Source: Candidatus Thorarchaeota archaeon
GTDB lineage: Archaea; Asgardarchaeota; Thorarchaeia; Thorarchaeales; Thorarchaeaceae
Length of the DNA stretch: 64,000 nt
Direction: 5' to 3'
Assembly: GCA_029855935.1 (NCBI GenBank)
Contig: JAGSHN010000012.1
Location: forward strand, 32,001 to 96,000
Both the position numbers and the translations under genes were made by a program. Numbering within the stretch: position 1 is the stretch's first letter; each line of letters begins with the position of its first letter. Shown piece after piece: positions 10,350 through 51,158 of this stretch. A model generated the notes under the pieces. That model saw only the letters and a program-made list of their open reading frames with translations, had not been told where the DNA came from and did no database searches.

Positions 10350-12578
10350 TCACAACGAAGGCAGAAAGAACATGATGGCGCTCCAGAGGACCCATATGAC
10401 TGTGACAATGGCCTCACCCGCCACGACCCCGCTCAGAACCCTACTGGGCCTGTCCGTCCGCATCTCCTGTACCTCTATGCGCTCTGGAAGCGGATCCCGT
10501 GGTGCGTCTCTCTTTATCTTGTAGTCGACTACTCCTCCAATCAACATTGCCATCGAGGTCGCAGGAGGGATGAGAAGGCCCACTACGAGACTCATCGGAC
10601 TCAGGCCGCGCCTGTTGAGGAACCGCCCCATAAGATACCCGCTTATGCCGAAGGAGAGGAGGTAGACGAACTGCAACCAGGCTGGCACACCTGGGAAGAG
10701 TGTGGTGTCCATTCCCGGCAGCACAAGGTTGCCGATGTTCTGCAGGCTGATCACGAGGAATCCGAAGAGCTGGGCCGCAGGTGCCGGAAAGTCTGTTGTC
10801 CCGAAGTGATACGTCCTGTATATCATGTAGATCATCAGAGATCCCACAAACGTCCCAAGGAGCGCGCCGAGGAACACCGCTTTGAATATGTCACGTCCCC
10901 GGACTCCTGTGAGTCTTCCCAGCTTGAGATGAACCAGCAGTGCGACCGCCGCGTCCTGAAGTGCTCCCAACATCGATATGAACGTCGTTATGGCCTGAAA
11001 TGTGGCGTGAAAGACGAGTATTGCTGGTATTGACATCACATCTGAGATGTAGCCTGCCAGCATCCCTGTTTCACTGATGGCTCTTGCCGTGAAGTAGGCG
11101 GAAATAAGCGCGAGGGGAGCACCGAGCACGAACAACAACCAGTGTATCTCAAGACCTGGGAACGGCCTGATGATGGAGAATATGGCAATTCCAATGATCG
11201 TGTAGATGGTGACCGAAACCAAGGCCACCCAGACTGGGACTTGGCCACGCCTAGAACTGAGGTATTCTCGAGGGTTGTGAACCATCTCCCGAATCTCCTC
11301 CCTGAGCGAGGTCATCGAGACCGTGAGGCGTCTCTCCATCATCCGTCTTATGTCCGAAACAGAGTGGGGATGGTCTATGGTGACGACCTCCTCCTCCTCC
11401 TTCTGCCTCCCCAGCCCCTCAGATGCCAACTCCTCAAATTCATCGGGTGTGAGCGAGTCGCCTCCCCTGCTCAGTGCAATGTCGCCCGATATGATGGTCG
11501 CGAAGACCCCGAGGACGAGATAGAGTATCTCCGGCCGGTGCAGATGGCTCCCATACGGAATGGGCTGGGCCCCTTCCAACACCACCCATATGCCCAGTGA
11601 TATGACACTCCCCAGCACGAGGATAACAGTTCTCTTCCATCCCACAAAGTATCCTATTGCAGCCACAAGTGGAGAGTTACTAATTCCAATCCAGTCGGGG
11701 ATGGCTGCCGCAGGGGCCAGCACAGACTTTAGCATATGCGGTAGCGATGAGAGACTCTCTCCGCTGATGGTCTCCGCGACCTTGGTGACCCCCACCCAGG
11801 CGCCTGAGGTGACGAGTCCTGTCGCCACATCCATCTTGGCAGCCCTGTCCATTCCGAGCGAGACTATGCACTCAGCCTGTGGCTTGACCTGGGGCCACGG
11901 CTCGCTCTCGAACCTGTCCCTCAACGGAGCAAGCAGAATCAATCCGAAGACGGCACTGGCCCCAGTCACGAAGACTATGAACGGGTACGTTATCAGGGCG
12001 GGAGCAACATCAGGGGCAAAGATCTCAATCGCCGGAAAGGTGATCAGAACACCCATCGATATCATCGACGAGCCGTTGGCAATGGCCACAGCGATGGTGT
12101 TTTCCTCAGGGGTGTATCTGCCCCTTGCACCAAGGATGAGTGCACCGAGCATCTCTGCACCGACAAAGTAGACGACTCCGAGCTTCAGCGCGAGGTATAT
12201 CCCCATGAAGGTCATCACTATCCCAACAAGTATACCTGTCGATATGGCGCGCTTTGTCAATGGGAATTTGGGCTCAATCATCACCAGAACGAAGATGGTG
12301 ACTCCGCCAATCGCCATGACTGTGATCTCCGTGAACATATGCAGGGTCATACTTGCAAAGAGGTAGATGACCACACCAAGAAAGATGGCTCCGACATCGC
12401 GCTTCGTGACTGTGGGACGATTGAGCGAGAGGTGAACAAGTGCAGCCTCAATCACAATGGCACAATACACACTTGGGTCCAGCCACCGCCCTTCGAGAAG
12501 AATGACGATTGCGTAGAAAAGCCCTGCTCCGAAGAGCCCGGCCAGGGTCATTCTCGTGGATCTGCGGTCTGTGAGCAA
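10350..12578 (-). CDS. OPT/YSL-family oligopeptide transporter
   Basis: YLALKLG, TPEENTI, DFPAPAA and SGVVAGEAI motifs; many TM helices. Confidence 0.8.
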   Translation of the reverse strand: MLTDRRSTRMTLAGLFGAGLFYAIVILLEGRWLDPSVYCAIVIEAALVHLSLNRPTVTKRDVGAIFLGVVIYLFASMTLHMFTEITVMAIGGVTIFVLVMIEPKFPLTKRAISTGILVGIVMTFMGIYLALKLGVVYFVGAEMLGALILGARGRYTPEENTIAVAIANGSSMISMGVLITFPAIEIFAPDVAPALITYPFIVFVTGASAVFGLILLAPLRDRFESEPWPQVKPQAECIVSLGMDRAAKMDVATGLVTSGAWVGVTKVAETISGESLSSLPHMLKSVLAPAAAIPDWIGISNSPLVAAIGYFVGWKRTVILVLGSVISLGIWVVLEGAQPIPYGSHLHRPEILYLVLGVFATIISGDIALSRGGDSLTPDEFEELASEGLGRQKEEEEVVTIDHPHSVSDIRRMMERRLTVSMTSLREEIREMVHNPREYLSSRRGQVPVWVALVSVTIYTIIGIAIFSIIRPFPGLEIHWLLFVLGAPLALISAYFTARAISETGMLAGYISDVMSIPAILVFHATFQAITTFISMLGALQDAAVALLVHLKLGRLTGVRGRDIFKAVFLGALLGTFVGSLMIYMIYRTYHFGTTDFPAPAAQLFGFLVISLQNIGNLVLPGMDTTLFPGVPAWLQFVYLLSFGISGYLMGRFLNRRGLSPMSLVVGLLIPPATSMAMLIGGVVDYKIKRDAPRDPLPERIEVQEMRTDRPSRVLSGVVAGEAIVTVIWVLWSAIMFFLPSL

Positions 12579-17205: not shown

Positions 17206-17661
17206 TCATAGTTCGAGTCGGATGGTTTCCCACTTGACGCGGCCCTCACGTACCGCATCTCTTATCTGCCTCTCCGTGCGGCTCAGCCGCGCGTTTCCCG
17301 TCTTCACATCGGCAAAGACTATCGTTATGGGCTCCCTGCTGCCACTGTCCTTTGCCCGTGTGTACCCGTCAAAGATTATGTAGTCAATCGGCGCACCAAT
17401 GAATCTCGCATCAGCCGGGTCGTACCTGAACACGCTTCGAAGCAGGGGAACAATCTGCTCCGCTATCTTTCCCTTCAGTACTTGGCGGCTGCGGTCGGCG
17501 GTTTCCTTCCGCAGCTTGTCCTCCTGTTCAGCCCACAGCTGTCTGAACCGTGCCTCCACAACCGCTATCCTGTTCCTCACGTACGCTCTCATCGCCAAGA
17601 AGACGATGGCCGCGATGGTCAGCCCGACTGCCAATCCTATCGCAAGATCGAGTGTTGTCAC
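17206..17661 (-). CDS. Membrane-anchored Holliday-junction-resolvase-related endonuclease (PD-(D/E)xK)
   Basis: N-terminal TM; SR.VLKGKIAEQ..P, DARFIGAPIDYIIFDG, F.DVKTG.ARLS..ERQIRDAV..GRV.W; start approximate. Confidence 0.85.
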   Translation of the reverse strand: MTTLDLAIGLAVGLTIAAIVFLAMRAYVRNRIAVVEARFRQLWAEQEDKLRKETADRSRQVLKGKIAEQIVPLLRSVFRYDPADARFIGAPIDYIIFDGYTRAKDSGSREPITIVFADVKTGNARLSRTERQIRDAVREGRVKWETIRLEL

Positions 17662-17879
17662 ATTCCAATATCTTGGCTCCCGCCTTTTATCTTCAAGTAA
17701 TCCGTGGGTCTGATGGCGCACAGCCCTCTGTTGCTGTGTCGAGGGGCGAACCATAGTCTACAGAGGCGGGTGCGAGCTAGTGATTCGGAACACGTTGGCG
17801 TCGGAGTAGATAAAATCAGTTAAATATGGGGGTTTACTCCATCGCATTGGTAGACTTGAACACAAAATGCGAGTTTCGG

Positions 17880-18347
17880 ATGGTGAGCCCATTGAGAGGA
17901 CGGGCACTGCTACTTGCTGTCATCATAGCCCTGTGGTTGGTCCCCACTGTATACGCATCGCCACGAACAACAGATGCAAGACTGGTCTATATCTCCAATG
18001 CATACTACACGGACCTTGACGGAGACTCCTGCCCTGATGACATCAAGATTCTCGTTGAGTTCGCGTTCGGCGAACTCGACCCGTCGAGGGTTGCCATAAA
18101 CCTGTGGATCATTCTGCCGTCTGGCGTGACCTACACGTTCAAGATCACCGTCTATCGTCCGCCTGACTGCTCCACGCTACAGATTGACTGTATGAATATG
18201 GCCTACGAGAGCGGATGGTACACTATCGACATGTCCGCCCGGCTGTCGGGCACCGTAGACGGTAGGTACGTAGTGACCGACACTTTTGCATTTGACCCGC
18301 CCACCGGCGGTGGCCCTGGTCTGCCAACCGTCAATGCGTACTTCTAG
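17880..18347 (+). CDS. Small secreted protein (module copy 1) with DxDGD motif and FDPP-GG C-terminus
   Basis: Signal peptide RGRALLLAVIIALWLVPTVYA; YYTDLDGDSCPDD, LPSG..YT, ESGWYT, FDPPTGGG; paralog of 48302-48796. Confidence 0.8.
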   Translation: MVSPLRGRALLLAVIIALWLVPTVYASPRTTDARLVYISNAYYTDLDGDSCPDDIKILVEFAFGELDPSRVAINLWIILPSGVTYTFKITVYRPPDCSTLQIDCMNMAYESGWYTIDMSARLSGTVDGRYVVTDTFAFDPPTGGGPGLPTVNAYF

Positions 18348-18361
18348 AGGGTTGCGTCCCA

Positions 18362-19474
18362 GTGAACCAAGGGATGCTTGAACTGCTGTTCAAGCTGCAG
18401 GAGATGCCTATGGCGCCGGCCAAGCGCCTTGCACAGGAGATTGGCCGTTCCACTCCGACTGTAATCTCTTGGCTGGAGAAGCTTGCTGCAGAGAAGGTGT
18501 TTCTTGGGGTCAAACCGTATCTTCGTGTCCGCAGGCTGGGCTTGGAGATATACGACTATCTGCTGGAGACAACATCGTATGATGCTGTTGTGAAGATCGA
18601 GGGGTTCTGTGAGCGGCATCCCTACACGTTATATCGTGCAAGGGTGTTTGGCGGTCCTCTCCGCGGAATGCTCGTTCAGTTCCGCCAGCCACCTGCTGCC
18701 CTGCCCCATCTCGAAGAGGCCTTTCGAGTCATGACAGATGCTGGCGTCATCAAGTCGATCAGAGAGCTGCCGACTCTTCAGGAGATATATGGTTCGATTC
18801 ACACGCGCCCGCGACTGGATGCGTGGGACTCAGACCGAATGACATGGGTATTTGACTGGGACTCGTGGTGGGCATCGGAACCGGCGACGGATACGCAGGA
18901 TGTGAAGCGGGCCGAAACCGGACCTCCAGAACAAGAGCGGCTGGTGATTGACAAGCTAGATGCGCGACTACTTCAAGAGCTGACAGCGAATGCACGGCAA
19001 AAGAACATCGACATCATTCGTAGGCTGGGGATGAACCCGAGAGAGGGTAGCATTCAACAGAAGGTCTCGAAACGTATCCAGCGACTGAGAGGAGTCATAG
19101 ACTCCTATCGTGTATTCATCAACTGGACCCATTTTGATGTCTACAATACACCAATGCTGATTGTCCAAGCAGACCCGTCGATGACCGAGCGGCTCATAGC
19201 AAAGCTGCGTGAGGGGACATTCCCATTCTCGTCCAGCATCCGGCGAATACCAGGGGGTTTCGTGTGGTACTCGCGTCTTCCCTCTGCTCATCTCTCGGAG
19301 CTTGTTTCATTGATATGGAGAATCTCTCAGAGCTATGAGATCTTTATGATTGACTACAAGTGTTCCCAGACATATGGCCTCTGGGCTGAGACATTTGACG
19401 AGGAGATTGGCGACTGGAGGACCGATAGAGACTTTTGCCTAGACGAACCATTGCGATCCATCGGTCTCGCATAG
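18362..19474 (+). CDS. Tandem (two wHTH + two RAM-like domains) Lrp/AsnC-like regulator (module copy 1)
   Basis: N-terminal HTH (RLAQEIGRSTPTVISWLEKL), second HTH start IDKLDARLLQELTANARQ; paralog of 48884-49993. Confidence 0.8.
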   Translation: MNQGMLELLFKLQEMPMAPAKRLAQEIGRSTPTVISWLEKLAAEKVFLGVKPYLRVRRLGLEIYDYLLETTSYDAVVKIEGFCERHPYTLYRARVFGGPLRGMLVQFRQPPAALPHLEEAFRVMTDAGVIKSIRELPTLQEIYGSIHTRPRLDAWDSDRMTWVFDWDSWWASEPATDTQDVKRAETGPPEQERLVIDKLDARLLQELTANARQKNIDIIRRLGMNPREGSIQQKVSKRIQRLRGVIDSYRVFINWTHFDVYNTPMLIVQADPSMTERLIAKLREGTFPFSSSIRRIPGGFVWYSRLPSAHLSELVSLIWRISQSYEIFMIDYKCSQTYGLWAETFDEEIGDWRTDRDFCLDEPLRSIGLA

Positions 19475-19503: not shown

Positions 19504-19911
19504 TCACTCGTCGGTGATCTCATCCTCTAGTGGAGCCACGAGAAGGACAAGTCGATCACGTCCCACCACTCTGACGGGTGAACCGGTCTTGATGACATCA
19601 GTCTCGTCACACCTCGCATGCCAGATCTCCCCACCGATACGTACTCTGCCGTCTGATGTGGTGACATCTCTTATCACGGTGCCTGTCTTGCCAACTACAT
19701 CGTAGACCACTCCAGTAGTGTCACCTATCACGGGGTAGATCAGATAATACTTGGCCGCTATTAGCACGACGAGTCCAATCATCACGAGTACGATGGCAGC
19801 GAGAAGATACCCTGGGAAGAGAAAATAGACTATGACGAGTATCACCGCCGCTACAGCAATGTCATCGAGGTTTATCAGGACAAACTTTGACCGGGCGCTC
19901 ATATCACTCAT
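19504..19911 (-). CDS. NfeD-family protein (short form, C-terminal OB domain)
   Basis: TM helices, then VGKTGTV...GRVRIGGEIWHA...G..VRVVG...L.L.V. Confidence 0.85.
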   Translation of the reverse strand: MSDMSARSKFVLINLDDIAVAAVILVIVYFLFPGYLLAAIVLVMIGLVVLIAAKYYLIYPVIGDTTGVVYDVVGKTGTVIRDVTTSDGRVRIGGEIWHARCDETDVIKTGSPVRVVGRDRLVLLVAPLEDEITDE

Positions 19912-20051: not shown

Positions 20052-21197
20052 TTGAAGACAGAGCTGATTCAATTTATGGCAGGTGCAGCGGTACTCTCGG
20101 CGTTCACCTATGTCCCTATTCTTGCACGCGACTATCTGGGAGCAGACGCGTTCTATGTAACGCTCCTTGTCGAGGGATATGCAGTCATGTCCTTCGTGTC
20201 CAGCTATATCTTTGGACGTGCTGGTGACATTCACGGGCGCCGGATTGTGCTTCGCTTGGGTCTGTTGGTGTCTGCCCTGTCATTCTCTCTTCTTCTCCTT
20301 GCGCAGGACCAGACGTTACTCTTCATTGTCAGGGCTCTCAATGGCTTTGCAGTGGGAATGTATCCCGGTGCGCTTGCAGCCTACGCATATGACTCCCACA
20401 TGCCGATGGGCCGGTTCGCATCGTTCGGGGCGCTGGGATGGGGAGTGGGTACATTTGTCACTGGCATTGCAGCATCAATGAATATCCACTCAGCCTTTGC
20501 ACTGTCGAGCCTGTTCTTTGTCGTCGCCTTTGGTAGTGCCCTGACGCTCCCCAAGGTCGACAGAGTGCGTGTCTACGTCCCGCTGTTTCCCATCGAGACA
20601 CTAAAGCGTAACTTGGCGGTATACATTGCAGTCCTAATTCGTCACAGCAGTGCGTTTGCAATATGGACACTGTGGCCCCTTTTCCTCGCCGACCTGGGCG
20701 CGGACCTGTTCACAATCGGGATCATTCAGGCAGCGAACTCGCTGTCACAGGTCTTCTTCATGGTCTTGCTCACGGACCGTGTTGAGTGCGTTCGCCTGAT
20801 CACGATAGGCCTCTTGGGAAGTGCTATCACGTTTGTCTGGTTCACTCTCGCCACAACCGTGATTGAGATACTTCCGTCTCAGATTCTTCTCGGCTTCTCG
20901 TGGGCGTGTCTCTACGTTGGGGCGTTGAAATACGTCACGGAGAAGAATGTCGAGAGGTCGACAGCGTCAGGCCTACTCTCGTCGATGCTCTCCATATCTG
21001 CAGTGTTCGGGCCGATCTATGCGTCCGTCCTATACTATCTGTGGCCAGGCTACACCGCCATCATGCTGTTTGCAGCCCTGATGTCAACGCTTGCTCTGCT
21101 CCTATTTCTAGGTGCGAGTCGGGGGGCCGAGCTGGTGAAACATGCATCCGCTCCCCTCGTGACGCCGGAGTCTACTGTGCTTCGCACCGCTATGTGA
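20052..21197 (+). CDS. MFS transporter
   Basis: About 12 TM; motif A variant FGRAGDIHGRR. Confidence 0.9.
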   Translation: MKTELIQFMAGAAVLSAFTYVPILARDYLGADAFYVTLLVEGYAVMSFVSSYIFGRAGDIHGRRIVLRLGLLVSALSFSLLLLAQDQTLLFIVRALNGFAVGMYPGALAAYAYDSHMPMGRFASFGALGWGVGTFVTGIAASMNIHSAFALSSLFFVVAFGSALTLPKVDRVRVYVPLFPIETLKRNLAVYIAVLIRHSSAFAIWTLWPLFLADLGADLFTIGIIQAANSLSQVFFMVLLTDRVECVRLITIGLLGSAITFVWFTLATTVIEILPSQILLGFSWACLYVGALKYVTEKNVERSTASGLLSSMLSISAVFGPIYASVLYYLWPGYTAIMLFAALMSTLALLLFLGASRGAELVKHASAPLVTPESTVLRTAM

Positions 21198-35262: not shown

Positions 35263-36570
35263 ATGGTCCTTCCGATACTGGAACCCTCTGCATGGGAGCC
35301 TCTGTTGGTCATCGGCCTCGGCATTGTGCTCGCCTTTGCGGGAGCAGTCGTGATGAAGCGACTGGGAATACCGCAGATACTGGGATTCATGCTGGCCGGG
35401 GTCATCCTCAGTGTCCTTGGCGTGATCACCTCGGATGTCAGGGCCGCACTGTTCCCGGTCGTCAATCTTGCCCTTGGGATGATTGGCTACAATATCGGTC
35501 TTGAGATTCGTAGAGAGGTCTTTCGTGGCAAGACGCGTCAGATGGGGACTATACTCGTTCTTGAGTCAATACTGACGTTTGTCGTGGTCACACTGCTGAC
35601 CAACCTCCTACTCTCAAACATCTATGTTGCAATTGTCTTTGGCGCACTTGCCAGTGCCACGGATCCTGCCTCCACTGTGATGGTCATCTGGGAGCGTAAC
35701 TCGAAGGGCACACTGACGGACACGCTGATGTTCGTCCTCGCCCTTGATGATGTGGTGGCAATACTTCTCGCGAACATCTCCATGTCGCTGGTCACAGTAG
35801 CATACTCCGGTTCTACTCTGCTCGGTGATGCACTCCTCGTCACACTCTTCGACATAGTCGCTTCAGCCGGCGTTGGTGCAGTCTTTGGTGCTGGAATGGT
35901 CTACTTCATTAATCGGGAGGACGACCGAGCCAAGCTTCTTGAGTTCGAGCTGGGCCTGATAATACTGCTCGTCGGGCTGATGACTTGGCTGCACCTGAGT
36001 GCAATCCTGTCGTGTATGATCTTCGGCTTTGTAGTTGGTAACTACGTCAGTCCTGAGAAGGACCCCGTCTGCCACACACTCAAGGTCGTGATGTCGCCGG
36101 TCGTGATGCTCTTCTTTGTGATTGTAGGTGCCTCGATCAATGTGTGGAACGTCCTGAGTCTGACCACGGTCCTGCTGGCGGTACTCTACGTGGGTGGTCG
36201 GAGCGTTGCCAAGTACGTCGGCGCATACACTGGTGGCAGGCTGACGGGCGCCCCCTCGGTCACAACGAGGTATCTCGGCTACTGTCTGATGTCGCAGGCA
36301 GGTGTGGCGGTGGGTCTCTCGCTCATTGTGGAGGAACAGTTTGGTGCCGCGGGCCTTGCCGATATGGGCCTCCTGATTCTAGACGTCGTTGTCATAACGA
36401 CGATGATTCTGCAGATACTCGGCCCCATCTTTGCCTCTGAGGGTCTCCGGCGCGCAGGAGAGTATCCTGTGACATGCGCCCCCCGAACGGGGGTGGCCAC
36501 AACAGGTCCTCCCAATGAACGCTCAATACTAGACGGCGGTCCTCCCGATAGCGCGCCACCTGACCCGTGA
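35263..36570 (+). CDS. Cation:proton antiporter (CPA2 / Na+:H+ exchanger family)
   Basis: ASATDPA, ALDDVV, SQAGVAVGL; many TM helices. Confidence 0.9.
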   Translation: MVLPILEPSAWEPLLVIGLGIVLAFAGAVVMKRLGIPQILGFMLAGVILSVLGVITSDVRAALFPVVNLALGMIGYNIGLEIRREVFRGKTRQMGTILVLESILTFVVVTLLTNLLLSNIYVAIVFGALASATDPASTVMVIWERNSKGTLTDTLMFVLALDDVVAILLANISMSLVTVAYSGSTLLGDALLVTLFDIVASAGVGAVFGAGMVYFINREDDRAKLLEFELGLIILLVGLMTWLHLSAILSCMIFGFVVGNYVSPEKDPVCHTLKVVMSPVVMLFFVIVGASINVWNVLSLTTVLLAVLYVGGRSVAKYVGAYTGGRLTGAPSVTTRYLGYCLMSQAGVAVGLSLIVEEQFGAAGLADMGLLILDVVVITTMILQILGPIFASEGLRRAGEYPVTCAPRTGVATTGPPNERSILDGGPPDSAPPDP

Positions 36571-36609
36571 TGCATGCATCTTATGAGGCGACGCCCGCAT
36601 TGTCTTGCT

Positions 36610-36921
36610 ATGTCGTCAAGCAGAGACTGTGTCAGAGATCAGCCGTGGAACGTCCGATGCGGTGTGAAGAGTCAGAAGGGCATCTGTGCCATTGGCCACA
36701 AAGTGGGTGATGAGGTCCTCTTCACAGAGAGAGGCCTGCGTGGCGAGCTATGTATCAGTGCTTTGTACTCGATGCTACCGAAGGTGTTCGCAATGATGTT
36801 CAACGCGTACTTTCCGTGGCTTGAGAATCAGTGTACTGCCATTCACGCGTGCCCCGATGCCGAGAATCCCGTTGTCTTTGAGTTGATGCGGGTCGAACGC
36901 GAGAAAAAGGATGACGAGTAG
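36610..36921 (+). CDS. TIGR04076-like small Cys-rich protein
   Basis: G.C..GHKVGD...LC..AL...CPD..NPVVFEL.R. Confidence 0.8.
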   Translation: MSSSRDCVRDQPWNVRCGVKSQKGICAIGHKVGDEVLFTERGLRGELCISALYSMLPKVFAMMFNAYFPWLENQCTAIHACPDAENPVVFELMRVEREKKDDE

Positions 36922-36951
36922 GTGGATCTGTGATATCGCTCCGTTTCCCAC

Positions 36952-37380
36952 TCACGAGTCACTCTCTCTCATCTCGCTGTCGTTCCCAAAGGTTTCAATC
37001 ATGTCGCGATGGACCGCATCGCTGTCTGGACGATTGGTCATCACAATTAGTGTGCGGCCGTACCAGCCGCAGTCGAGGCAGTAGTAGGCCGGCTGGAGGG
37101 CCCCAAGAAGACCAAGGTCAACCTGAGATGTTATCTGAATCACTCTGAAGCTCTTGCAGTTCGGGCAGATGGGGATATCCTGTGAGATACCCTTCTTCTT
37201 CATCTCTTCAAGAGCGTGCCTGACAAACTCAAGTCTACGAAGCTCGACTAGCTCCCTCCTTGAGAGCACAGAACCTACCGTGTTGCGCAATCGCAGCATC
37301 TCCACAAGGTGATACCGTGATGTCACCTGCGGCTCAGGAAAAGACACCGCGTACCACTGTTCGGTCCCGCGTGCACTCAA
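36952..37380 (-). CDS. Small zinc-ribbon protein
   Basis: ICPNCKS...YYCLDCGWYG; true start probably downstream of 37380. Confidence 0.7.
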   Translation of the reverse strand: MSARGTEQWYAVSFPEPQVTSRYHLVEMLRLRNTVGSVLSRRELVELRRLEFVRHALEEMKKKGISQDIPICPNCKSFRVIQITSQVDLGLLGALQPAYYCLDCGWYGRTLIVMTNRPDSDAVHRDMIETFGNDSEMRESDS

Positions 37381-37597
37381 CTTATTAATTCATTTACGCA
37401 TTCCGCTCACAACCGCGTCAGCGAGGTATAATCATGTCATCCGAGTTACGCTCCCTCGGACAATCACCGTGCCGTACGCACATCCTCCCGCCGTGGGGTA
37501 GCAGTCTAGTCACCCCCCGCAGTCCACTCGGGGTGCAGTCTCTCCCCCATAATCCGGCTGCAGAATACTCCGCGGCGTCTGTCAGACTGTTCTGGAG

Positions 37598-38101
37598 TTG
37601 GTCTGCTTGAGCGAGCGCCCCGGCCTGAGTGGCTCACTGATCGACATTGTCATTGTTGTCTTCTCCGTCGGTGTTCTTCTTGGGTCCGTCACTGTCTGGA
37701 TGGCGTCCGCGACAGTCTCGCGCGAGATAGTCTTCGTCACAACAACGGTGGCACTCGTCATTTCTCTAGTCCTTGTGATCAGCGTGGCTGCTCTCGTTGT
37801 GGTTCGACTTCACAGACGCGTGGCCCGTCTTGAGCAGTCGTTGAACAATCGGGATGAGAGGCTGCCCGCAGTGGAGCCATCTGTGGTTGTCGTAACTCTC
37901 ACGAACATCGAGCGTCGGATTCTGAACCGGCTGGAGGAGAATGATGGGATCATCGCACAGGACGAGCTCAGACGTGTCACAGGTCTGAGCAAGTCCACAC
38001 TCAGTGTTTCGTTGTCCTCGCTGGAGCGAAAGGGGCTCATCCGACGGGAAACACGGGGCAGGACGAAGATTGTCCAGATGGTCTCCAGTGTGCGTCGATG
38101 A
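37598..38101 (+). CDS. Membrane-tethered winged-helix (MarR-like) regulator
   Basis: Two N-terminal TM helices, then LT..ERRIL...QDELRRVTGLSKSTLSVSLSSLERKGLI.RE..GRTK. Confidence 0.85.
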   Translation: MVCLSERPGLSGSLIDIVIVVFSVGVLLGSVTVWMASATVSREIVFVTTTVALVISLVLVISVAALVVVRLHRRVARLEQSLNNRDERLPAVEPSVVVVTLTNIERRILNRLEENDGIIAQDELRRVTGLSKSTLSVSLSSLERKGLIRRETRGRTKIVQMVSSVRR

Positions 38102-38267
38102 TATCGTCCCTAGAACGGTCTGCGCCTCAGGTAACTCTCCATTGTTGTGAATCAGCAGCATAAGCCCCTCCCTCGTTGGCAGAGTGAACGGTTCACAGCG
38201 AACATCTATTACTATCCACTCCGGAAGATGTTCCAGAAACAATCTCCAACGGAGGAAAAGAAGAGCT

Positions 38268-43956: not shown

Positions 43957-44457
43957 TCAGGTGTTGGGTTCGGTATGGGAGATTGTTATGGCTGGCGCAG
44001 ACCGTCCTGACCTCATCCCACGTACCTCTCCTATCCTTGCCGCTATGCCCCCTGCGATTGCACTAAGAAGCCAGATCTGGCTCGGGTCTGTCACTGGTTT
44101 CGCGGCCCATATCTGTGGCCACAGTGGATGTCCACCGACAATCCAACCCAACAGGGAGTCGGAGACAATGGCCAGCAGGAGCATTATGAGGCCTGCAAGC
44201 ACTCCTTTGACAACGGGACAGATGTGGAGGCGCAGGCTGCAGCCCTGGTTCATCAGATTGGAGTAGGTCACGGGAACTACCACAACCGGCACAATGACCA
44301 ACCGGGTCCACCAGAAGAGCGAGAACTCAACGGACAGTCCCAGCATGACACCAACTAAGGTCGTGATCAGATAGAGCGGTAACCAGACCTTGACAATCCA
44401 CATCCATGTCTCGATGTCAGACCTCACAGACATTGTCTTATCGCCGTCCGAAGACAT
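43957..44457 (-). CDS. Membrane protein of unknown function
   Basis: Four hydrophobic segments, GCSLRLHICP loop. Confidence 0.6.
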   Translation of the reverse strand: MSSDGDKTMSVRSDIETWMWIVKVWLPLYLITTLVGVMLGLSVEFSLFWWTRLVIVPVVVVPVTYSNLMNQGCSLRLHICPVVKGVLAGLIMLLLAIVSDSLLGWIVGGHPLWPQIWAAKPVTDPSQIWLLSAIAGGIAARIGEVRGMRSGRSAPAITISHTEPNT

Positions 44458-44583
44458 GTGGTGATACTAATTACTGATGTGATGTGGTGCTCTGCCTGAT
44501 GCGCGCCGGGGGACCGAACACACCCTATGAGACGATATTGGGAACCTTGATAGGAACGGGTCTCACAATATGACTTGGTGAAT

Positions 44584-44733
44584 ATGGCTCGGCACATTGT
44601 GGTCGCGGATGACATCTACCTGCGACTGAAGGCGCTGAAGAAGCCAGGGGAGAGCTTTAGCAACGTGATCAGACGCCTGATAGAGGAGGCAGACGCAACG
44701 ATGCCTGCAAGAGTGCCCGCGTCAACCTCTTGA
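44584..44733 (+). CDS. VapB-family (DUF217-type) RHH antitoxin-like protein, 49 aa, missing from the ORF track
   Basis: MARHIVVADDIYLRLKALKKPGESFSNVIRRLIEE matches the I.V..D.Y.RL...K..GESFS.VI.RL pattern; SD-like GGTGA upstream. Confidence 0.85.
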   Translation: MARHIVVADDIYLRLKALKKPGESFSNVIRRLIEEADATMPARVPASTS

Positions 44734-44737
44734 CAGC

Positions 44738-46027
44738 TTATGGAGTTACTCGGTTCAGTACCCTTGGGAACGCGCATGCGTCTCTGATGTGATCCAGCTT
44801 GAGGAGCCACCAGACAAGCCGTTCTGTGCCAAGTCCGAACCCTGAGTGTGGCACCGAGCCGTATCGTCTTAGGTCGAGATACCACTGATAGTCTGCAGGG
44901 TCGAATCCCTCTGCCTTCACACGCTCTATGATGTTGTCAAGGTCCTCCTCTCGTGCGCCACCGGTGGTCATCTCGCCGTAGCCCTCCGGGGCCATCAGGT
45001 CGGCCGATAGGACATATCCGGGATTGTCCGGGTCGCGCTTCACATAGAACGGCTTGATCTCCTCCGGGTATCGGTAGATGAAGAAGGGCCTGTCAAAGTG
45101 GTTTGACAGTGCGCGCTCGGCTGGGGCACCAAAGTCTGTCCCGGGCCTCATGTCGATGCCCTTCTCCTGCACAATCTTGACCGCCTCATCATAGGTGATC
45201 CTCTTGAACGGCGGTCTGATTGAGAGCAGGTAGTCAGGGTCGCGTCCGAGTGAGCTGATTGCGTCAGGCATCTTCTCAGCCACTGTCTTGCATATGTACG
45301 AGAAGAGATGCTCCTGAACCTGCATTATCTCCTCAAGGCCCTTGAAGGGGCACTCCGCCTCGATGTGCCAGTACTCTGTCAGGTGGCGGACAGTCCTAGA
45401 CTTCTCGGCGCGGAAGGATGGAGTTATGGAGTAGACATCGCCAAGCGCGAAGATGAGTGCCTCTAGATAGAGCTGTGCGCTCTGGCTCAGGTATGCCATT
45501 CTGTCAAAGTACTTGAGGCTGAACAGCGTTGCACCACCCTCGCATGCGCTGCCCACAAGGATTGGTGGGAAAGTCTCCGTGTAGCCGTTCTCGTAGAACC
45601 ATTCGCGTGCCGCGCGCACGACCTCCGCCTTGACCTGCATGATCTGGGTCAGTTTGCGGCTCCGGATCCAGAGGTGTCTGTTGTCCAGAAGGACCTCGAC
45701 CGACTGATCCTTGGTGATTGGGAACATGTGTGAGGGACCAATCAGCTCAAAACCGGTTATCTCGAGCTCAATTCCTCCGGGCGCTCTCTTGTCCTCCTTT
45801 GCCAGCCCAGTTATCTTCACAGACGACTCTATACCAAGATTCTCTGGTATCTGGACCTGAGGGTTCAGATTGGGATGATGCACGCACTGGAGTACTCCGG
45901 TTTCATCACGCAACACAATGAAGGTTGCCTTGCCGTGTATCCTCTTCCTGTAGACCCATCCTCTGATGGTGTAGGTCTCACCGGGTACTTTCACGTCACG
46001 AATCTTGACGATGCCATCCGTGCTCAA
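44738..46027 (-). CDS. asnS: Asparagine--tRNA ligase
   Basis: OB domain GWVYRKR...LRD.TG; LSQSAQLYLE, FRAEKS..RHLTEYW, WYLDLRRYGSVPHSGFGLG. Confidence 0.93.
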   Translation of the reverse strand: MSTDGIVKIRDVKVPGETYTIRGWVYRKRIHGKATFIVLRDETGVLQCVHHPNLNPQVQIPENLGIESSVKITGLAKEDKRAPGGIELEITGFELIGPSHMFPITKDQSVEVLLDNRHLWIRSRKLTQIMQVKAEVVRAAREWFYENGYTETFPPILVGSACEGGATLFSLKYFDRMAYLSQSAQLYLEALIFALGDVYSITPSFRAEKSRTVRHLTEYWHIEAECPFKGLEEIMQVQEHLFSYICKTVAEKMPDAISSLGRDPDYLLSIRPPFKRITYDEAVKIVQEKGIDMRPGTDFGAPAERALSNHFDRPFFIYRYPEEIKPFYVKRDPDNPGYVLSADLMAPEGYGEMTTGGAREEDLDNIIERVKAEGFDPADYQWYLDLRRYGSVPHSGFGLGTERLVWWLLKLDHIRDACAFPRVLNRVTP

Positions 46028-46106
46028 TGCTCATCCCACGTAGGGGGCCTCATTGTGGACCTTATAATAGTATGGCCGTTGCTGACGGATTTCTTTCTGT
46101 GGCTCC

Positions 46107-46844: not shown

Positions 46845-47007
46845 CTCGTCCTACCAAAAATACGTTCCTCTTCAATCTGGCACGTCGCGTACCCCACTGT
46901 GAGTCGGTCGATAACAAGAGGCCGAGTCTTGTAGAGAAGAAATGGTGGACGAGGGGCTATGCACCAAGAGGCGCAAAGACCCTCATCCTGTTGCTGTTGC
47001 CGGAATC

Positions 47008-48066
47008 CTACCTCTGGATGAGCCCGTATCCGTAGGCTGGGTCCCATCCGGACGGGCCAAGATCCAGTGCGGTGCTGTGGAGATATCCACGAATCGTGTT
47101 GGTTCCCGTGTCGTCAAAGGTGCCGACGGGCATCTTCCCGTTTATGGCAATGATAAGGGCCACGAGTCCGGCCACGTGGGGGCAGGCCATCGATGTGCCC
47201 GAGAGGGTATCATAGCCGCCACCCTTGTAGGTGCTGTAGATTCCGACACCTGGGGCCGTGACCTCGACGTACGACCCGGTGTTCGAGAACGACGCCACCG
47301 CGTCATCCTTGTTGGTTGCACCAACAGCAATGACCTCTGCGTACGCGGCCGGGTAGGAGATCTCCTCGGTGGAGGGGTCTCCGTCACCCTCATTGCCTGC
47401 TGCAGCGACGAGTACAATACCCATGTTGTAGGCATGGATGATCGCGTCGTGGACCTCTGTGGGCGCGGATGAGGCTCCCAGGCTCATGCTGATGACATCG
47501 GCATCATCAGCTGTGCCCTCGATGCCATCAGGACCCTGACAGGCAAGGTAGATTCCTGTCACAAGGTCGCTCCAGTCACCTCTGCCTCCGTTGCCGAGGA
47601 CCTTGATAGCGTATATCTCGACGTTGGCGTACATTCCCACGACGCCATTGCCATCGCGAACAGCTCCAATGGTACCTGCGACGTGAGTGCCGTGTCCGTT
47701 CTTGTCATCGGCGCTTCTGCCACCAGTCGCATCGACGGTCCACTTGATGTTTGAGACAAGATCCGGATGGTCAAGGTCTATCCCAGTGTCGAGGATAGCG
47801 ACTTGGACCTTCGTTGTGGGCTGGTCTCCGTCATAGTTCCCATTGAACACTCTCTCGATGCCCCACGGCGTCTCGGGGTCGTTGTCTTGCCACGGGTATG
47901 TTGTTTCGTCGCCTCCACCCGGCCCCGCCCAGGGCGGTGGTCCGACTAGGGCGACGAACCCTTTGTGCTTCGGAGTCACTGCAAACGCTGCCACCGGGAA
48001 GGTGGACACAGCGAAGAGAAGCAGGATCAATCCGGCGAGGGTCTTAGTCTTCACTTTCTCTCTCAC
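47008..48066 (-). CDS. Secreted S8 subtilisin-like serine protease with a very short pro-region
   Basis: Signal peptide; catalytic triad ILDTGID, NGHGTHVAG, GTSMACPHVAG; oxyanion AAAGN. Confidence 0.95.
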   Translation of the reverse strand: MREKVKTKTLAGLILLLFAVSTFPVAAFAVTPKHKGFVALVGPPPWAGPGGGDETTYPWQDNDPETPWGIERVFNGNYDGDQPTTKVQVAILDTGIDLDHPDLVSNIKWTVDATGGRSADDKNGHGTHVAGTIGAVRDGNGVVGMYANVEIYAIKVLGNGGRGDWSDLVTGIYLACQGPDGIEGTADDADVISMSLGASSAPTEVHDAIIHAYNMGIVLVAAAGNEGDGDPSTEEISYPAAYAEVIAVGATNKDDAVASFSNTGSYVEVTAPGVGIYSTYKGGGYDTLSGTSMACPHVAGLVALIIAINGKMPVGTFDDTGTNTIRGYLHSTALDLGPSGWDPAYGYGLIQR

Positions 48067-48133
48067 CTGTCAAAGGAGTCTGTCCGTCATTCGGCTGACA
48101 GACTGCTCTCCAAGTGCCCTGCCACCTAATAAA

Positions 48134-48186
48134 TATTGGGTGAATTCTATAACCTACTTGGTGTAGAGTATATATTTCACCCAATA
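48134..48186. promoter_or_regulatory. 11-bp inverted repeat TATTGGGTGAA-N31-TTCACCCAATA in the divergent protease/module promoter
   Basis: Exact reverse-complement arms at 48134-48144 and 48176-48186, adjacent to AT-rich TATA-like elements. Confidence 0.65.
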
Positions 48187-48301
48187 GTCTGGGATACGTT
48201 CGTCGCAACACTCTGATAGAGTTCCATCATCCCATCTCTCAGCGGGTCAAGTCTTAACTCATAGGCTCACAGAGTTTATATAGAATGTCGTCAGACCGTC
48301 C

Positions 48302-48796
48302 GTGATGGTCATGGCCCGGCGTAATCTCATCTCCATTCTTCTCCTCTCCGTCCTGATCATAGCCGCATCATCGACTGTTGCCTATGCCTCAAGTGTCACA
48401 GTCCGGAGCAGTAATAGACAGGTCTCTGTCACGCTCTCAATTGTGGAGGCATTCTATACGGATGCGGACGGGGACGGATACGAGGACGACGTTGTCGGTT
48501 ATTTCGACATCTTTCTGGGCGGCCGACAGCGCTACACAATGGACATCTCTCCGGCATTGACTCTGCCCTCTGGAGAGTCCTACACCTACCTCTACACGGT
48601 CAACACCCGTCTGTCGACACTACACTGTACGATGTACTTCTACGACCACGCGCTGGAGAGCGGAAACTACACATTCAGTGTTGATATCGTGCTGTATACG
48701 GGTGGTGTTGCTGCAGGGCAGACCCACTACTCCTTCGACCCACCGGGCGGATCTGGCGATGCAGATCCGTGCGGCTTCCTTGTCGTGAGCGCCTGA
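48302..48796 (+). CDS. Small secreted protein (module copy 2) with DxDGD motif and FDPPGG C-terminus
   Basis: Signal peptide RRNLISILLLSVLIIAASSTVAYA; FYTDADGDGYEDD, LPSGESYT, ESGNYT, FDPPGG. Confidence 0.8.
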   Translation: MMVMARRNLISILLLSVLIIAASSTVAYASSVTVRSSNRQVSVTLSIVEAFYTDADGDGYEDDVVGYFDIFLGGRQRYTMDISPALTLPSGESYTYLYTVNTRLSTLHCTMYFYDHALESGNYTFSVDIVLYTGGVAAGQTHYSFDPPGGSGDADPCGFLVVSA

Positions 48797-48883
48797 CACT
48801 CCTCCTCGTGACGCGAGTCAGCTCGGTCCGTGGAATGCCGCAGTCCTGAGGGCTTTGGGGGGCCAAGACGGGGTGAAACAACA

Positions 48884-49993
48884 ATGCCACTATCACAGCT
48901 TGACCTAAAGATACTGCATCTAATCGAACTGAGGCCCACAATCTCAGTTCAGGAACTGGCAAAGATGACCGGTGTGAGCTGGATCACAGCCAATCGTCAC
49001 ATCAAGAAGCTGAGAGAGGACCGTGTTCTGTCAGACCCTGTCGCAGTGTTCAATCCCGACCGACTGGGCCTCGAACGTCACGTTGTTTTTCTAGAGGCGA
49101 CAGGAGAGTCTGGTCTGCAGGCGCTTGAGATTGCATGCGATGTCCATCCCTATACTCACTACAGGTCACGGGTGTACGGCCCGTATCCCGGGCTCTTTGT
49201 CCAGTTTGACATTCCTCCCGTAGGTGCCACCCTACTGCAGGAGTTTCTCGACGAGCTGGCAGGAATGGGGCACGGTCAGGTCCGTGTCTCTCGTAGGAGT
49301 TCGGGTTTCAGGGCGTCGACCATCCCGAGCCTCACACTGTTCGACCCCAAGACGATGACGTGGCACTATGACTGGACTAAGTGGACCGAGCAGATAGGGC
49401 GCCTATCCCCGAGGCTCGAGCGCCCTGGGGTCTCTCGTGGTGCGGATCAACGCCTCAACCTCACTGAGGCCGACCTTGGAATCTTGCGCGAGCTCACCTC
49501 GAACGCCAATCTCAATCAGGCGATTCTCCAGAAGATGTTCTCCCTATCACAGAGCACGGTGAGTAGAAAGGTCATCTCCATCCGCGAGCGGTTCATCGAG
49601 TCCGTCCGTGCTCAGATTGACCGGTCCCGGTTCGACATCACGTCCACCAAGATGTTCTACAGCGAGAACGTCGACGATGCCACCCGAGCCCGGCTCTTCA
49701 ATGCATTCTCTCTTGACACTGCCCCGCCGTTCCCGATGTCCATCGACCTGCTCGATGATGGCGGTGTCCTGTTGTGGGGGCGGATGCCACCCTCTCACGA
49801 GCACAATCTGTTCTACGCGCTGTGGCGGTACCTGCATAACCTTCAGGTGTTCACGATGGACACAGTCCGCGACCACAGCCGCCTCTACTGGTTCTACCCG
49901 GCGAACTACGATGTCGAGTCCCAACAATGGAGATGCGACCGCACGTGGATGGTGGAGCAGCCCCTTGATGACCTGCGCAAGGCCCTGAAATAG
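48884..49993 (+). CDS. Tandem Lrp/AsnC-like regulator (module copy 2)
   Basis: SD GGGGTGA; LSQLDLKIL...ELAKMTGVSWITANRHIKKL; second HTH LTEADLGILRELTSNA...LSQSTVSRK. Confidence 0.85.
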   Translation: MPLSQLDLKILHLIELRPTISVQELAKMTGVSWITANRHIKKLREDRVLSDPVAVFNPDRLGLERHVVFLEATGESGLQALEIACDVHPYTHYRSRVYGPYPGLFVQFDIPPVGATLLQEFLDELAGMGHGQVRVSRRSSGFRASTIPSLTLFDPKTMTWHYDWTKWTEQIGRLSPRLERPGVSRGADQRLNLTEADLGILRELTSNANLNQAILQKMFSLSQSTVSRKVISIRERFIESVRAQIDRSRFDITSTKMFYSENVDDATRARLFNAFSLDTAPPFPMSIDLLDDGGVLLWGRMPPSHEHNLFYALWRYLHNLQVFTMDTVRDHSRLYWFYPANYDVESQQWRCDRTWMVEQPLDDLRKALK

Positions 49994-50041
49994 GCATTCT
50001 CCGGTCCCTGTCTAAAGTATCATGACCGGACGGTGCCGAAG

Positions 50042-50114: not shown

Positions 50115-50666
50115 CTACCTCAGGAACTTGCTGACGAATGGCGAGGTCTCGCCGCGACGCATGAAGTGGCCCGACGGTCCCTCCCCGAGGAACTCTGAGA
50201 ACCACGACTCATGCTCAATCTCCTCGTGCAGGATGGCCACCACGAGCTCGTACGTCCTATGATCCTTTCCCGCCGTCATCTTTGCAAGCTGAGTGTAGCC
50301 CCTGACAGCACATCTCTCCGCCTCGACAAGGACCTTCAGAATCTCTCTGACATCCGTCGGGTCCTCGGGGAGCAGGGCGGGTGGGCAGGCGGACATGTCG
50401 TGGAACTCCTTCATGTCCTGTGGGAGCTCGCCTCCAAGCTCGTATATCCGTGGTACCAGTGCCTCGAAGTGATTTCTGTCCTCGACTCTCGCGACCTCTG
50501 CTATCTCCTTGAGTCCCTCTCCCTCAAGTCCTATGAGGTGGACTCTGAGAATTGTGTAGTAGTAGTACGTCGTCAGCTCGGCTGAGGCATTCTTGATCAA
50601 CAGCCTGAGGAGCTTGTCCAGGTCGACCCCGGCATTCTCCACCATCTCTCTTGCTACTCGCGCCAT
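50115..50666 (-). CDS. dps: DPS-like (DPSL / thioferritin) ferritin-superfamily protein
   Basis: AELTTYYYYTILR, EDRNHFE, SACP...AERCAV Cys pair, EEIEHE..F.E.L...PSGHF. Confidence 0.92.
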   Translation of the reverse strand: MARVAREMVENAGVDLDKLLRLLIKNASAELTTYYYYTILRVHLIGLEGEGLKEIAEVARVEDRNHFEALVPRIYELGGELPQDMKEFHDMSACPPALLPEDPTDVREILKVLVEAERCAVRGYTQLAKMTAGKDHRTYELVVAILHEEIEHESWFSEFLGEGPSGHFMRRGETSPFVSKFLR

Positions 50667-50753: not shown

Positions 50754-51158
50754 GTGATCGCCCAACTCAAGAGACATGGACTACGGCTCACGCCGCAGAG
50801 AATGGCCATACTACGCACGCTAGAGGAGATAGGTCATCATCATCCCTCCTTCTCCCAAGTCTGTTCCGCGGTTCAGAGCGACCATCCCAACATCAGTCAG
50901 TCGACCATACTGAAGAACCTCGAGGCCTTTGAGAGGATTGGCATCCTACGCAGCTTTCACTATCGTGGTGAGACCCGATACGAGCTCAACCCTGCGCCGC
51001 ACGTCAATCTGATTCGTGAGGACGGTGCAATAGTCGATATCGAAGATGATGCCATCAGGGGCCTGCTTGTCAAACTCCAGAGGGCTGTGGCAGAGAGAGT
51101 CGGCGCCGACGTGGATCGCATCCTCATAATCGCTGAGACTGAGCAGAACAGAGGCTGA
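50754..51158 (+). CDS. Fur/PerR-family regulator, divergent from dps
   Basis: LKRHGLRLTPQRMAIL, HPS, ISQSTILKNL, RYELN..PHVN; lacks CxxC motifs. Confidence 0.85.
   Translation: MIAQLKRHGLRLTPQRMAILRTLEEIGHHHPSFSQVCSAVQSDHPNISQSTILKNLEAFERIGILRSFHYRGETRYELNPAPHVNLIREDGAIVDIEDDAIRGLLVKLQRAVAERVGADVDRILIIAETEQNRG

Follow-up and report, generated by a model that had tools for sequence, protein, structure and literature searches.

Introduction

Archaeal regulators of the Lrp/AsnC family, such as FL11 (PH1519), Grp (ST1022), Ss-LrpB and LysM, combine an AsnC-type winged helix-turn-helix (wHTH) with a RAM fold in subunits of about 150 residues that assemble into dimers or higher oligomers. Here a two-gene module of a Thorarchaeota-type Asgard archaeon is described in which two full units of this kind are joined in a single chain of 370 residues, the monomer corresponding to a pseudo-dimer, and in which the gene for this regulator follows directly on a gene for a small protein with a predicted signal peptide. 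Two copies occur in the window, a term used for the whole stretch of 64,000 nucleotides from Candidatus Thorarchaeota archaeon that was analyzed (contig JAGSHN010000012.1, positions 32,001 to 96,000). The module seems to be a previously undescribed unit controlling extracellular digestion, and not an established signal between cells; a probability of about 50% is given to the reading that it is a self-contained regulator/target cassette of an undescribed family with this role.

Other described systems share part of this layout. The enzyme NirDL, considered here together with AhbA-AhbB, is the sole solved single-chain tandem Lrp fold among the structural matches listed. The Phr/Rap and other RRNPP systems of Firmicutes have in common with the module a Sec-exported product encoded beside a cytoplasmic regulator, a possible C-terminal specificity, subtilases nearby and an oligopeptide transporter in the genome; the proteases that process Phr in Bacillus are subtilisin, Epr and Vpr. 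A similar combination of a regulator, a secreted protein of small size without catalytic function and, in many cases, a secreted hydrolase is found in substrate-utilisation loci such as the polysaccharide utilisation loci of Bacteroidota, which also occur as paralogous cassettes. The module differs from the latter in that the components are unrelated, the hosts are archaea and the targets are apparently proteins and not glycans.

Conserved linkage of the two genes

The first copy of the module comprises the gene for a small secreted "FDPP" protein of 155 residues (17880-18347, + strand, from the listing of open reading frames, ORFs) and that for the tandem Lrp/AsnC-like regulator of 370 residues (18362-19474, +). 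The corresponding genes of the second copy are found at 48302-48796 (+, 164 residues) and 48884-49993 (+, 369 residues counted from ATG, with an in-frame alternative GTG start upstream at 48830). For the small gene of copy 1 the start at 17880 is favoured over an upstream ATG at 17826, since the aligned methionine at 17880 is invariant. An identity of 32% over 129 residues (E-value, E, 4e-12) was found between the two small proteins, and one of 27% across the full length (E 2e-36) between the two regulators. In both pairs the upstream gene is divergent and encodes a protein with an Endonuc_Holl domain at copy 1 (17206-17754, -, Pfam) and a secreted subtilase of 352 residues at copy 2 (47008-48066, -, Peptidase_S8, Pfam 1.2e-56). 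A preliminary description of the window had reported the same pair twice in this order and orientation, which was confirmed, and the genome in fact holds four copies of the module. The window is part of contig C21 of this metagenome-assembled genome (MAG), which comprises 2.97 Mb in 32 contigs; the third and fourth pairs, with order and orientation as in the window, are located on contig C8 (small gene 37688-38131 with regulator 36525-37592, and small gene 45604-46044 with regulator 44353-45258). A weak match to the regulator (E 2.6e-4), from an ORF of 594 residues, was also observed on contig C29 (111935-112636, +). The closest named relatives are Thorarchaeota MAGs, with a regulator identity of up to 69%.

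A profile made from the four small proteins found matches in 97 of the 301 sampled genomes of the phylum and in 37 of the 70 genera, with one to nine matches per genome. When loci were collected with the small protein as the seed, the next gene downstream in 29 of 30, on the same strand, was a regulator homologue, and the 30th was cut by a contig end; all complete loci (29/29) are therefore adjacent, co-oriented and in the same order. The linkage was equally strict from the other side, as 56 of 56 loci fetched by a regulator motif, with one genome taken per species, have an ORF of the small family directly upstream on the same strand, and no regulator in this set lacked the small gene. The gap between the stop of the small gene and the start of the regulator has a median of about 48 nt. 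When the same phylum sample was searched with a regulator profile, the genomes with strong hits (E below ~1e-60) were nearly those that had matched the small protein, and the weaker hits elsewhere are probably other tandem-Lrp families.

The 56 loci span Thor-, Heimdall- and Hodarchaeota and include six loci labelled Bathyarchaeia or Bathyarchaeota and one from Nezhaarchaeales. In five of the six Bathyarchaeia loci and in the Nezhaarchaeales locus the match to the small protein is weak (E 1e-5 to 1e-7), with the FDPP motif present. Complete modules thus occur in Bathyarchaeia and Nezhaarchaeales, that is, in Thermoproteota (loci L053-L055, L062, L063, L069 and L078). The Bathyarchaeia copies stand at two separate places in the regulator tree, an unrooted FastTree, and this placement suggests that the pair may move as a unit between phyla.

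The two genes have also diverged together. Distances in both gene trees correlate with a Mantel r of 0.69, compared with a maximum of 0.16 in 500 label permutations, and paralogous subfamilies, each with its own type of tail at the C-terminus of the small protein, are kept across genera, the tail classes tracking the clades of the regulator. The proposal that the two genes form a cognate pair, old and maintained, had been accompanied by a call to examine adjacency in other genomes and co-phylogeny; adjacency was universal in the loci examined and the trees co-vary, both of which bear the proposal out.

The tandem Lrp/AsnC-like regulator

The regulator is built of a wHTH, a RAM-like domain and a Trp-rich strand/helix extension, all three of which are then repeated in the same chain. 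The AlphaFold2 model of the copy 1 regulator has a predicted local distance difference test (pLDDT) score of 90 and a predicted template-modelling score (pTM) of 0.86, and it shows a beta-alpha-beta-beta-alpha-beta domain after the wHTH. AsnC-type HTH domains were recognised by Pfam near residue 20 and near residue 200. In copy 1 the match is to HTH_AsnC-type (PF13404) at residues 196-243, corresponding to the second HTH (4.6e-6), while copy 2 matches HTH_24 (PF13412, 1.7e-16) in two HTH stretches and HTH_AsnC-type (PF13404) at 2e-9; NCBIfam returned partial matches to Lrp, AsnC and LrpA. The recognition helices have net charges of +1.8 and +2.8, at a net charge of -3.9 for the whole regulator.

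Conserved columns among 28 aligned regulators include HPYT.YR, W..DW..W and W..DR, and these, like the motifs quoted for the small protein, had been noticed beforehand as shared by the two copies; they proved to be invariant or nearly so in 29 small proteins and 28 regulators. HPYT.YR is found in the first half of the regulator only. The invariant residues are distributed asymmetrically, with H86, P87, R92, Q106 and P110 in the first RAM, followed by W162, W169 and W352, a pattern which suggests one specific pocket and not two equivalent ones.

Compared with the archaeal Lrp/AsnC regulators, the protein shares the AsnC-type wHTH and the RAM fold, and its closest sequence matches in the PDB fall in this family. 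It differs from them in the fusion of two full units, in the additional Trp-rich extension of each RAM, in the asymmetry of its invariant residues, in the lack of a Pfam match to the RAM and in being tied without exception to one target gene family. The regulator is a new, single-chain form of the Lrp/AsnC kind.

The tandem fold also raises the question of whether the protein might be an enzyme or a chaperone that reuses the Lrp fold, as in AhbA/B and NirDL, and is needed for the small protein before export. The best full-length match of the regulator by Foldseek is indeed NirDL (4ch7, E 3e-11), and the asymmetric invariant set H86, P87, R92, Q106, W162, W169 and W352 resembles an active site or a specific pocket. 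However, a full-length match to NirDL is expected, because this is the only fused tandem Lrp-fold chain among the matches listed, and the domain arrangement differs (TM-score 0.49/0.57, root-mean-square deviation, rmsd, 13), whereas each half of the regulator aligns with Lrp regulators at TM 0.62-0.76. By sequence the protein is closer to true Lrp regulators than to NirDL or AhbA/B: a regulator profile matched ST1022, PH1519, NMB0573 and LrpC in the PDB at about 1e-7 and NirDL at 3.5e-5. The AsnC_trans_reg2 domain (PF17805) was detected neither in the four regulators (E up to 0.1) nor anywhere in the genome (E up to 0.01), under settings to which control genomes respond. No haem or haem-d1 biosynthesis genes lie nearby, and no tetrapyrrole-pathway family is among the most frequent neighbour families of the modules; unlike NirDL and AhbA/B, the regulator is present more than once per genome, with the gene of a secreted protein next to every copy. 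The positively charged HTH helices and an operator-like motif specific to the locus, described below, argue further against an enzyme or chaperone, which we regard as highly improbable. The AhbA/B-type siroheme decarboxylase, named beforehand as an alternative that could overturn the regulator assignment, is thus not matched by the sequence.

The candidate operator

A locus-specific cis-element is present upstream of copy 2. A repeat search detected an operator-like inverted repeat at 48134-48186, in the intergenic region between the subtilase and the small gene, with arms of 24 nt each (48134-48157 and 48163-48186) that are 83% complementary and separated by a 5-nt spacer. In 13 orthologous copy-2-type promoters a motif with a consensus of about TTGGGTnAAnTCTTAAC is conserved some 20 nt upstream of a TATA-like box. 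A weight matrix was trained on 11 orthologous sites of other genomes, with the window's own site excluded, and the 2.97-Mb genome was scanned on both strands. The inverted repeat contains both top matches to the TTGGGTnAAnTCTnTAA motif genome-wide, which rank first and second at 48136-48152 (+) and 48168-48184 (-) with 22.0 and 20.4 bits. A promoter-proximal copy, GCGGGTCAAGTCTTAAC at 48242-48258 (+), ranks ninth genome-wide and is followed about 20 nt downstream by the TATA-like box of the copy 2 small gene, TTTATATA at 48276-48283.

In the promoters of Bathyarchaeia and Nezhaarchaeales the palindrome TTTTTGC-N6/7-GCAAAAA is found, which we take to resemble published archaeal Lrp boxes, and in the copy-1 orthologues of other genomes only a partial GCTTGAAA...TTAAGC element was detected. 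A scan for intrinsic terminators and sigma-70 promoters around regulator 2 returned nothing, the sigma-70 model not being applicable to archaea. As with the archaeal Lrp/AsnC regulators, the candidate operators are palindromic, AT-centred and located in the promoter region, and the regulatory logic appears to be local and probably autoregulatory. Sequence-specific binding of the regulator to the candidate motif is proposed, on the indirect evidence of the positively charged recognition helices and of the locus-specific motif.

The small protein and its C-terminal tail

The small protein consists of a Sec-type signal peptide, an immunoglobulin (Ig)/FnIII-like sandwich and a DxDxDG loop. The N-terminus shows basic residues, a hydrophobic stretch and then a small-x-small site, and a basic n-region with a hydrophobic stretch was found in 120 of 133 full-length representatives; secretion is predicted from this signal peptide. 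The motifs of copy 1 are LPSG, ESGWY and FDPP, and the alignment of 29 small proteins shows conserved columns at Y.D.D.D..DD, LPSG, ESG.Y (E-x-G-x-Y) and FDPP. Within the D-x-D-x-D-G-x-x-D-D loop, D45, D47, D49, D53 and D54 are invariant in the 29 sequences. DxDxDG loops are an established calcium-site motif, and the loop is accordingly a predicted calcium site.

The protein has no family match in Pfam or NCBIfam and is named "hypothetical protein" in every source annotation. Among 1.84 billion representative proteins, 352 clusters were matched at E up to 1e-3, almost all of them stand-alone proteins of 140-180 residues, and no fused form of the domain, which could have served as Rosetta-stone evidence for a partner, was found. 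A protein of 4885 residues (P0084) gave 18 short partial matches to profile positions 94-129, which may reflect a repeated strand-pair motif or may be compositional. The AlphaFold2 model (29 sequences, pLDDT 86) comprises the signal helix, a seven-stranded sandwich and an eighth, short C-terminal strand. Many unrelated Ig/FnIII domains were aligned by VIA-align over some 100 residues at Z-scores of 8-9.7, and no single family was favoured. Fold searches of the PDB (Foldseek and VIA-align) and the ESM Atlas returned generic Ig/FnIII, CARDB, NPC2, ApaG and Wzt-C matches only, and no inhibitor, pilin or propeptide fold stood out among them; the language-model atlas yielded unnamed archaeal clusters only. 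Complex prediction for the regulator and the mature small protein, with both alignments, gave a score of 0.01 against a mark of 0.32, which speaks neither for nor against binding.

The C-terminal tails of the two copies, TGGGPGLPTVNAYF in copy 1 and GGSGDADPCGFLVVSA in copy 2, differ, as the preliminary description had stated, but they are not free-form: one pattern is shared by 146 representatives. It consists of FDPP, eight Gly/Pro/Asp-rich residues ending in a near-invariant Pro (110/146), and then mostly 5-8 residues in which hydrophobic positions alternate with variable ones before the stop. The copy 2 protein has orthologues with the same tail class at 13 other loci, in which C, G, L and V occupy conserved positions interleaved with variable ones. 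In some Bathyarchaeia copies a single residue follows the conserved Pro. The alternation is the signature of a half-buried edge strand, as judged from the aligned residues, and in the model of the copy 1 protein the tail forms a strand at residues 150-154 with a pLDDT of ~93.

These features bear on the idea of peptide signalling coupled to proteolysis, in which the secreted protein, folded and stabilised by calcium, would serve as a precursor or reporter substrate with a short segment exposed at its C-terminus. Cleavage behind FDPP or within the Gly/Pro linker, by a peptidase encoded in the module or by another extracellular one, would release the peptide, which would be imported to bind the RAM pseudo-dimer of its cognate regulator. 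The paralogous pairs would differ in specificity and form separate channels, and the receptor would control peptidase genes. The absolute linkage from both sides and a co-divergence that follows the tail classes would fit such an arrangement, as would the position of the candidate peptide at the C-terminus with secreted subtilases and other peptidases adjoining, a layout that may be seen as parallel to Phr processing by subtilases. On the other hand, the tail is modelled with high confidence as an integral strand, its pattern is that of a half-buried one, conservation in the small protein is highest in the folded domain and not in the tail, and some Bathyarchaeia tails have one residue after the conserved Pro. 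The earlier suggestion that the tail is set free as a signal is weakened by its modelled structural role and its conserved pattern, and is considered rather unlikely. The comparison with RRNPP systems likewise reaches its limits here: the candidate receptor has an Lrp fold and no TPR match, the "precursor" is a conserved folded domain of 130 residues and not a short pro-peptide, it is encoded upstream and not downstream, and its tail is modelled as part of the fold.

A terminal strand of this kind could also be donated to a neighbouring molecule. The small protein would in that case be a subunit of an extracellular fibre or surface layer, passing its C-terminal strand to the next subunit, with the peptidase perhaps activating it and the regulator acting locally; protease-triggered strand exchange occurs in type V pili. 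The combination of an Ig-like sandwich, a Gly/Pro linker of about 10 residues and a short amphipathic terminal strand corresponds to the general layout of donor-strand subunits, and a secreted peptidase often adjoins. Nevertheless, AlphaFold2 places the strand in cis, neither known pilins nor subunits of the TasA, Abp or thread type stood out among the fold matches, no assembly genes recur among the immediate neighbours, and one dedicated regulator per subunit gene would be unusual. A fibre subunit is for these reasons considered very unlikely.

Secreted hydrolases next to the modules

When the neighbours of the 56 regulator-seeded loci were clustered, recurrent secreted proteins were found within 3 kb in 35 of 56, mostly divergent from the small gene. 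This set was a single-linkage BLAST cluster, and taking it as a uniform group of "subtilases" was rejected, as Pfam shows S8, C14 and Big_1-bearing proteins joined through shared Ig domains; given this heterogeneity, per-family Pfam counts were relied on. In 53 loci the immediate upstream gene is a Peptidase_S8 in 14, a Peptidase_C14 in 5, an InhA-like M6 peptidase in 2 and an Asp_protease_2 in 1, and the immediate downstream gene is an S8 peptidase in 4. Other upstream neighbours are Big_1-bearing secreted proteins, one with a weak match to Zn-dependent phospholipase C, and a protein of 702 residues with a weak HExxH metalloprotease match. The 2.97-Mb genome has about 11 S8 genes, and two of its four modules flank one, far more than expected from chance placement; on contig C8 a subtilisin gene lies downstream of one cassette. 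The link to extracellular proteolysis that had been proposed is thus backed by secreted serine, cysteine, metallo- and aspartyl peptidases flanking many modules.

The window subtilase (47008-48066) has a signal-peptide-like N-terminus and a short pro-region, and no I9 propeptide was matched by Pfam in it or in the module-associated S8 proteins scanned. The small protein might on this account be a partner of the neighbouring peptidase, be it a trans-acting foldase or pro-domain substitute, an inhibitor or decoy, or a surface anchor, with the regulator being merely local. Besides the adjoining peptidases, this idea draws on the missing I9 match of these S8 proteins, with the window subtilase matched in the catalytic domain only, and on a C-terminal strand whose aromatic or hydrophobic end could fill a protease cleft, as the C-termini of subtilisin propeptides do. 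A class-specific inhibitor or foldase is nevertheless hard to reconcile with neighbours of the serine, cysteine, metallo and aspartyl classes and a weakly phospholipase-C-like Big_1 protein. Many modules have no peptidase nearby, and no known inhibitor or propeptide stood out among the fold matches. The role of peptidase partner is regarded as unlikely.

Peptidases of different catalytic classes would fit the small protein better as a substrate than as a class-specific inhibitor, a point in favour of peptide signalling. The latter can also count on an OPT transporter gene in the window (10350-12578, -, PF03169, 8e-29), which had been put forward as the oligopeptide importer for re-uptake. The gene is real, but it lies about 5 kb from copy 1 and is not conserved with the pair; no importer recurs beside the modules among the immediate neighbours in 53 loci, and some 40% of the modules have no nearby peptidase to release a peptide. 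Both the signalling scheme and its extension to separate channels are, taken together with the evidence from the tail, rather unlikely.

Further genes adjoin the modules. The Endonuc_Holl protein of copy 1 is membrane-anchored, with a domain related to archaeal Holliday-junction resolvases, and its gene also adjoins copy-1 orthologues in other Thorarchaeota, with or without a secreted C14 peptidase in between; in some of these orthologues the peptidase gene is found between the resolvase-like and the small gene, and it is not found at copy 1 in the window. Downstream of regulator 1 are genes for an NfeD-like membrane protein (19504-19911, -) and an MFS transporter (20052-21197, +), which are also beside copy-1 orthologues on two other Thorarchaeota contigs. 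Directly downstream of regulator 2 are the divergent genes for a ferritin/Dps-like protein (50115-50666, -) and a Fur-family regulator (50754-51158, +), which look like an ordinary iron-storage control unit. In other Thorarchaeota, secreted proteins of about 450 residues are encoded beside copy-2-type modules (L051:354-1652, +; L056:260-1615, -). They have a C-terminal Big_1/CarboxypepD_reg Ig domain and no sequence match in the PDB, and the N-terminus of the former matches Zn-dependent phospholipase C weakly (E 1.3e-3); these proteins may be an undescribed hydrolase.

Proposed role of the module

The regulator/target cassette for extracellular digestion, to which a probability of about 50% was given above, is preferred because of the linkage, the tandem Lrp fold with its charged helices, the cis-element, the hydrolase link and the signal peptides. 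According to this proposal, the small Sec-secreted Ig/FnIII-like protein would be co-transcribed with a cytoplasmic, single-chain, pseudo-dimeric factor of the Lrp/AsnC type, both wHTH domains of which would recognise boxes, in the form of repeats or palindromes, in the promoter region of the cassette itself. These boxes would sit in a shared control region wherever the gene of a secreted hydrolase is divergent from the cassette or adjacent to it. The two fused RAM-like domains and the Trp-rich extensions would form one asymmetric ligand site for a small molecule inside the cell, the most plausible candidate being an amino acid or a short peptide derived from extracellular digestion, and the factor would thereby tune the expression of the secreted protein and of the neighbouring peptidase. 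The former would act outside the cell as an accessory of digestion, possibly in contact with the hydrolase, and the paralogous cassettes within a genome would each be devoted to a different enzyme or substrate.

Several points weigh against this proposal. The loci were drawn from related MAGs, and the counts of 29/29 and 56/56 overstate independence. Local regulation alone does not explain why the regulator is never found without the small gene, which would be equally expected of a ligand/receptor pair. Copy 1 is among the roughly 40% of modules that lack a recognisable hydrolase within 3 kb, and the motif of its orthologues has no clear equivalent at copy 1 in the window. The RAM-like domains were recognised solely from their fold, as AsnC_trans_reg, the Pfam model for ligand binding, does not match the regulator, and that the adjacent regulator binds the candidate cis-element is something we infer. 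Finally, the sequencing runs that match positions 47000-50000 of the window are hydrothermal-vent metagenome DNA only, with no RNA run listed. That the truth lies with an explanation outside the digestion cassette and the four alternatives considered here seems quite unlikely.

Significance for archaeal biology

Both gene families are without a name in Pfam, NCBIfam and the source annotations, and no paper describing the module was found in a full-text literature search. Within the reach of these searches, the obligate pairing of such a regulator with a secreted family, and the association of the pair with hydrolases of several classes, are new as well. If peptide signalling were true after all, the module would be the first peptide-type pair of extracellular signal and cytoplasmic receptor described in Archaea, it would add a new class of ligand for the RAM domain, and a new form of extracellular sensing would be at hand in those prokaryotes that are most closely related to eukaryotes.

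The regulator itself extends the known range of the Lrp fold: two units are fused into one chain, which forms a pseudo-dimer whose pocket is asymmetric, and to date the only structure solved with this architecture is that of an enzyme. Detrital protein in sediments is regarded as the main food of Asgard archaea and Bathyarchaeia and, to our knowledge, nothing is known about the control of secreted peptidases in these organisms. The cassette provides a testable handle on this control, as it offers a dedicated regulator family, a candidate operator and a secreted family of about 350 clusters that is never found apart from its regulator.

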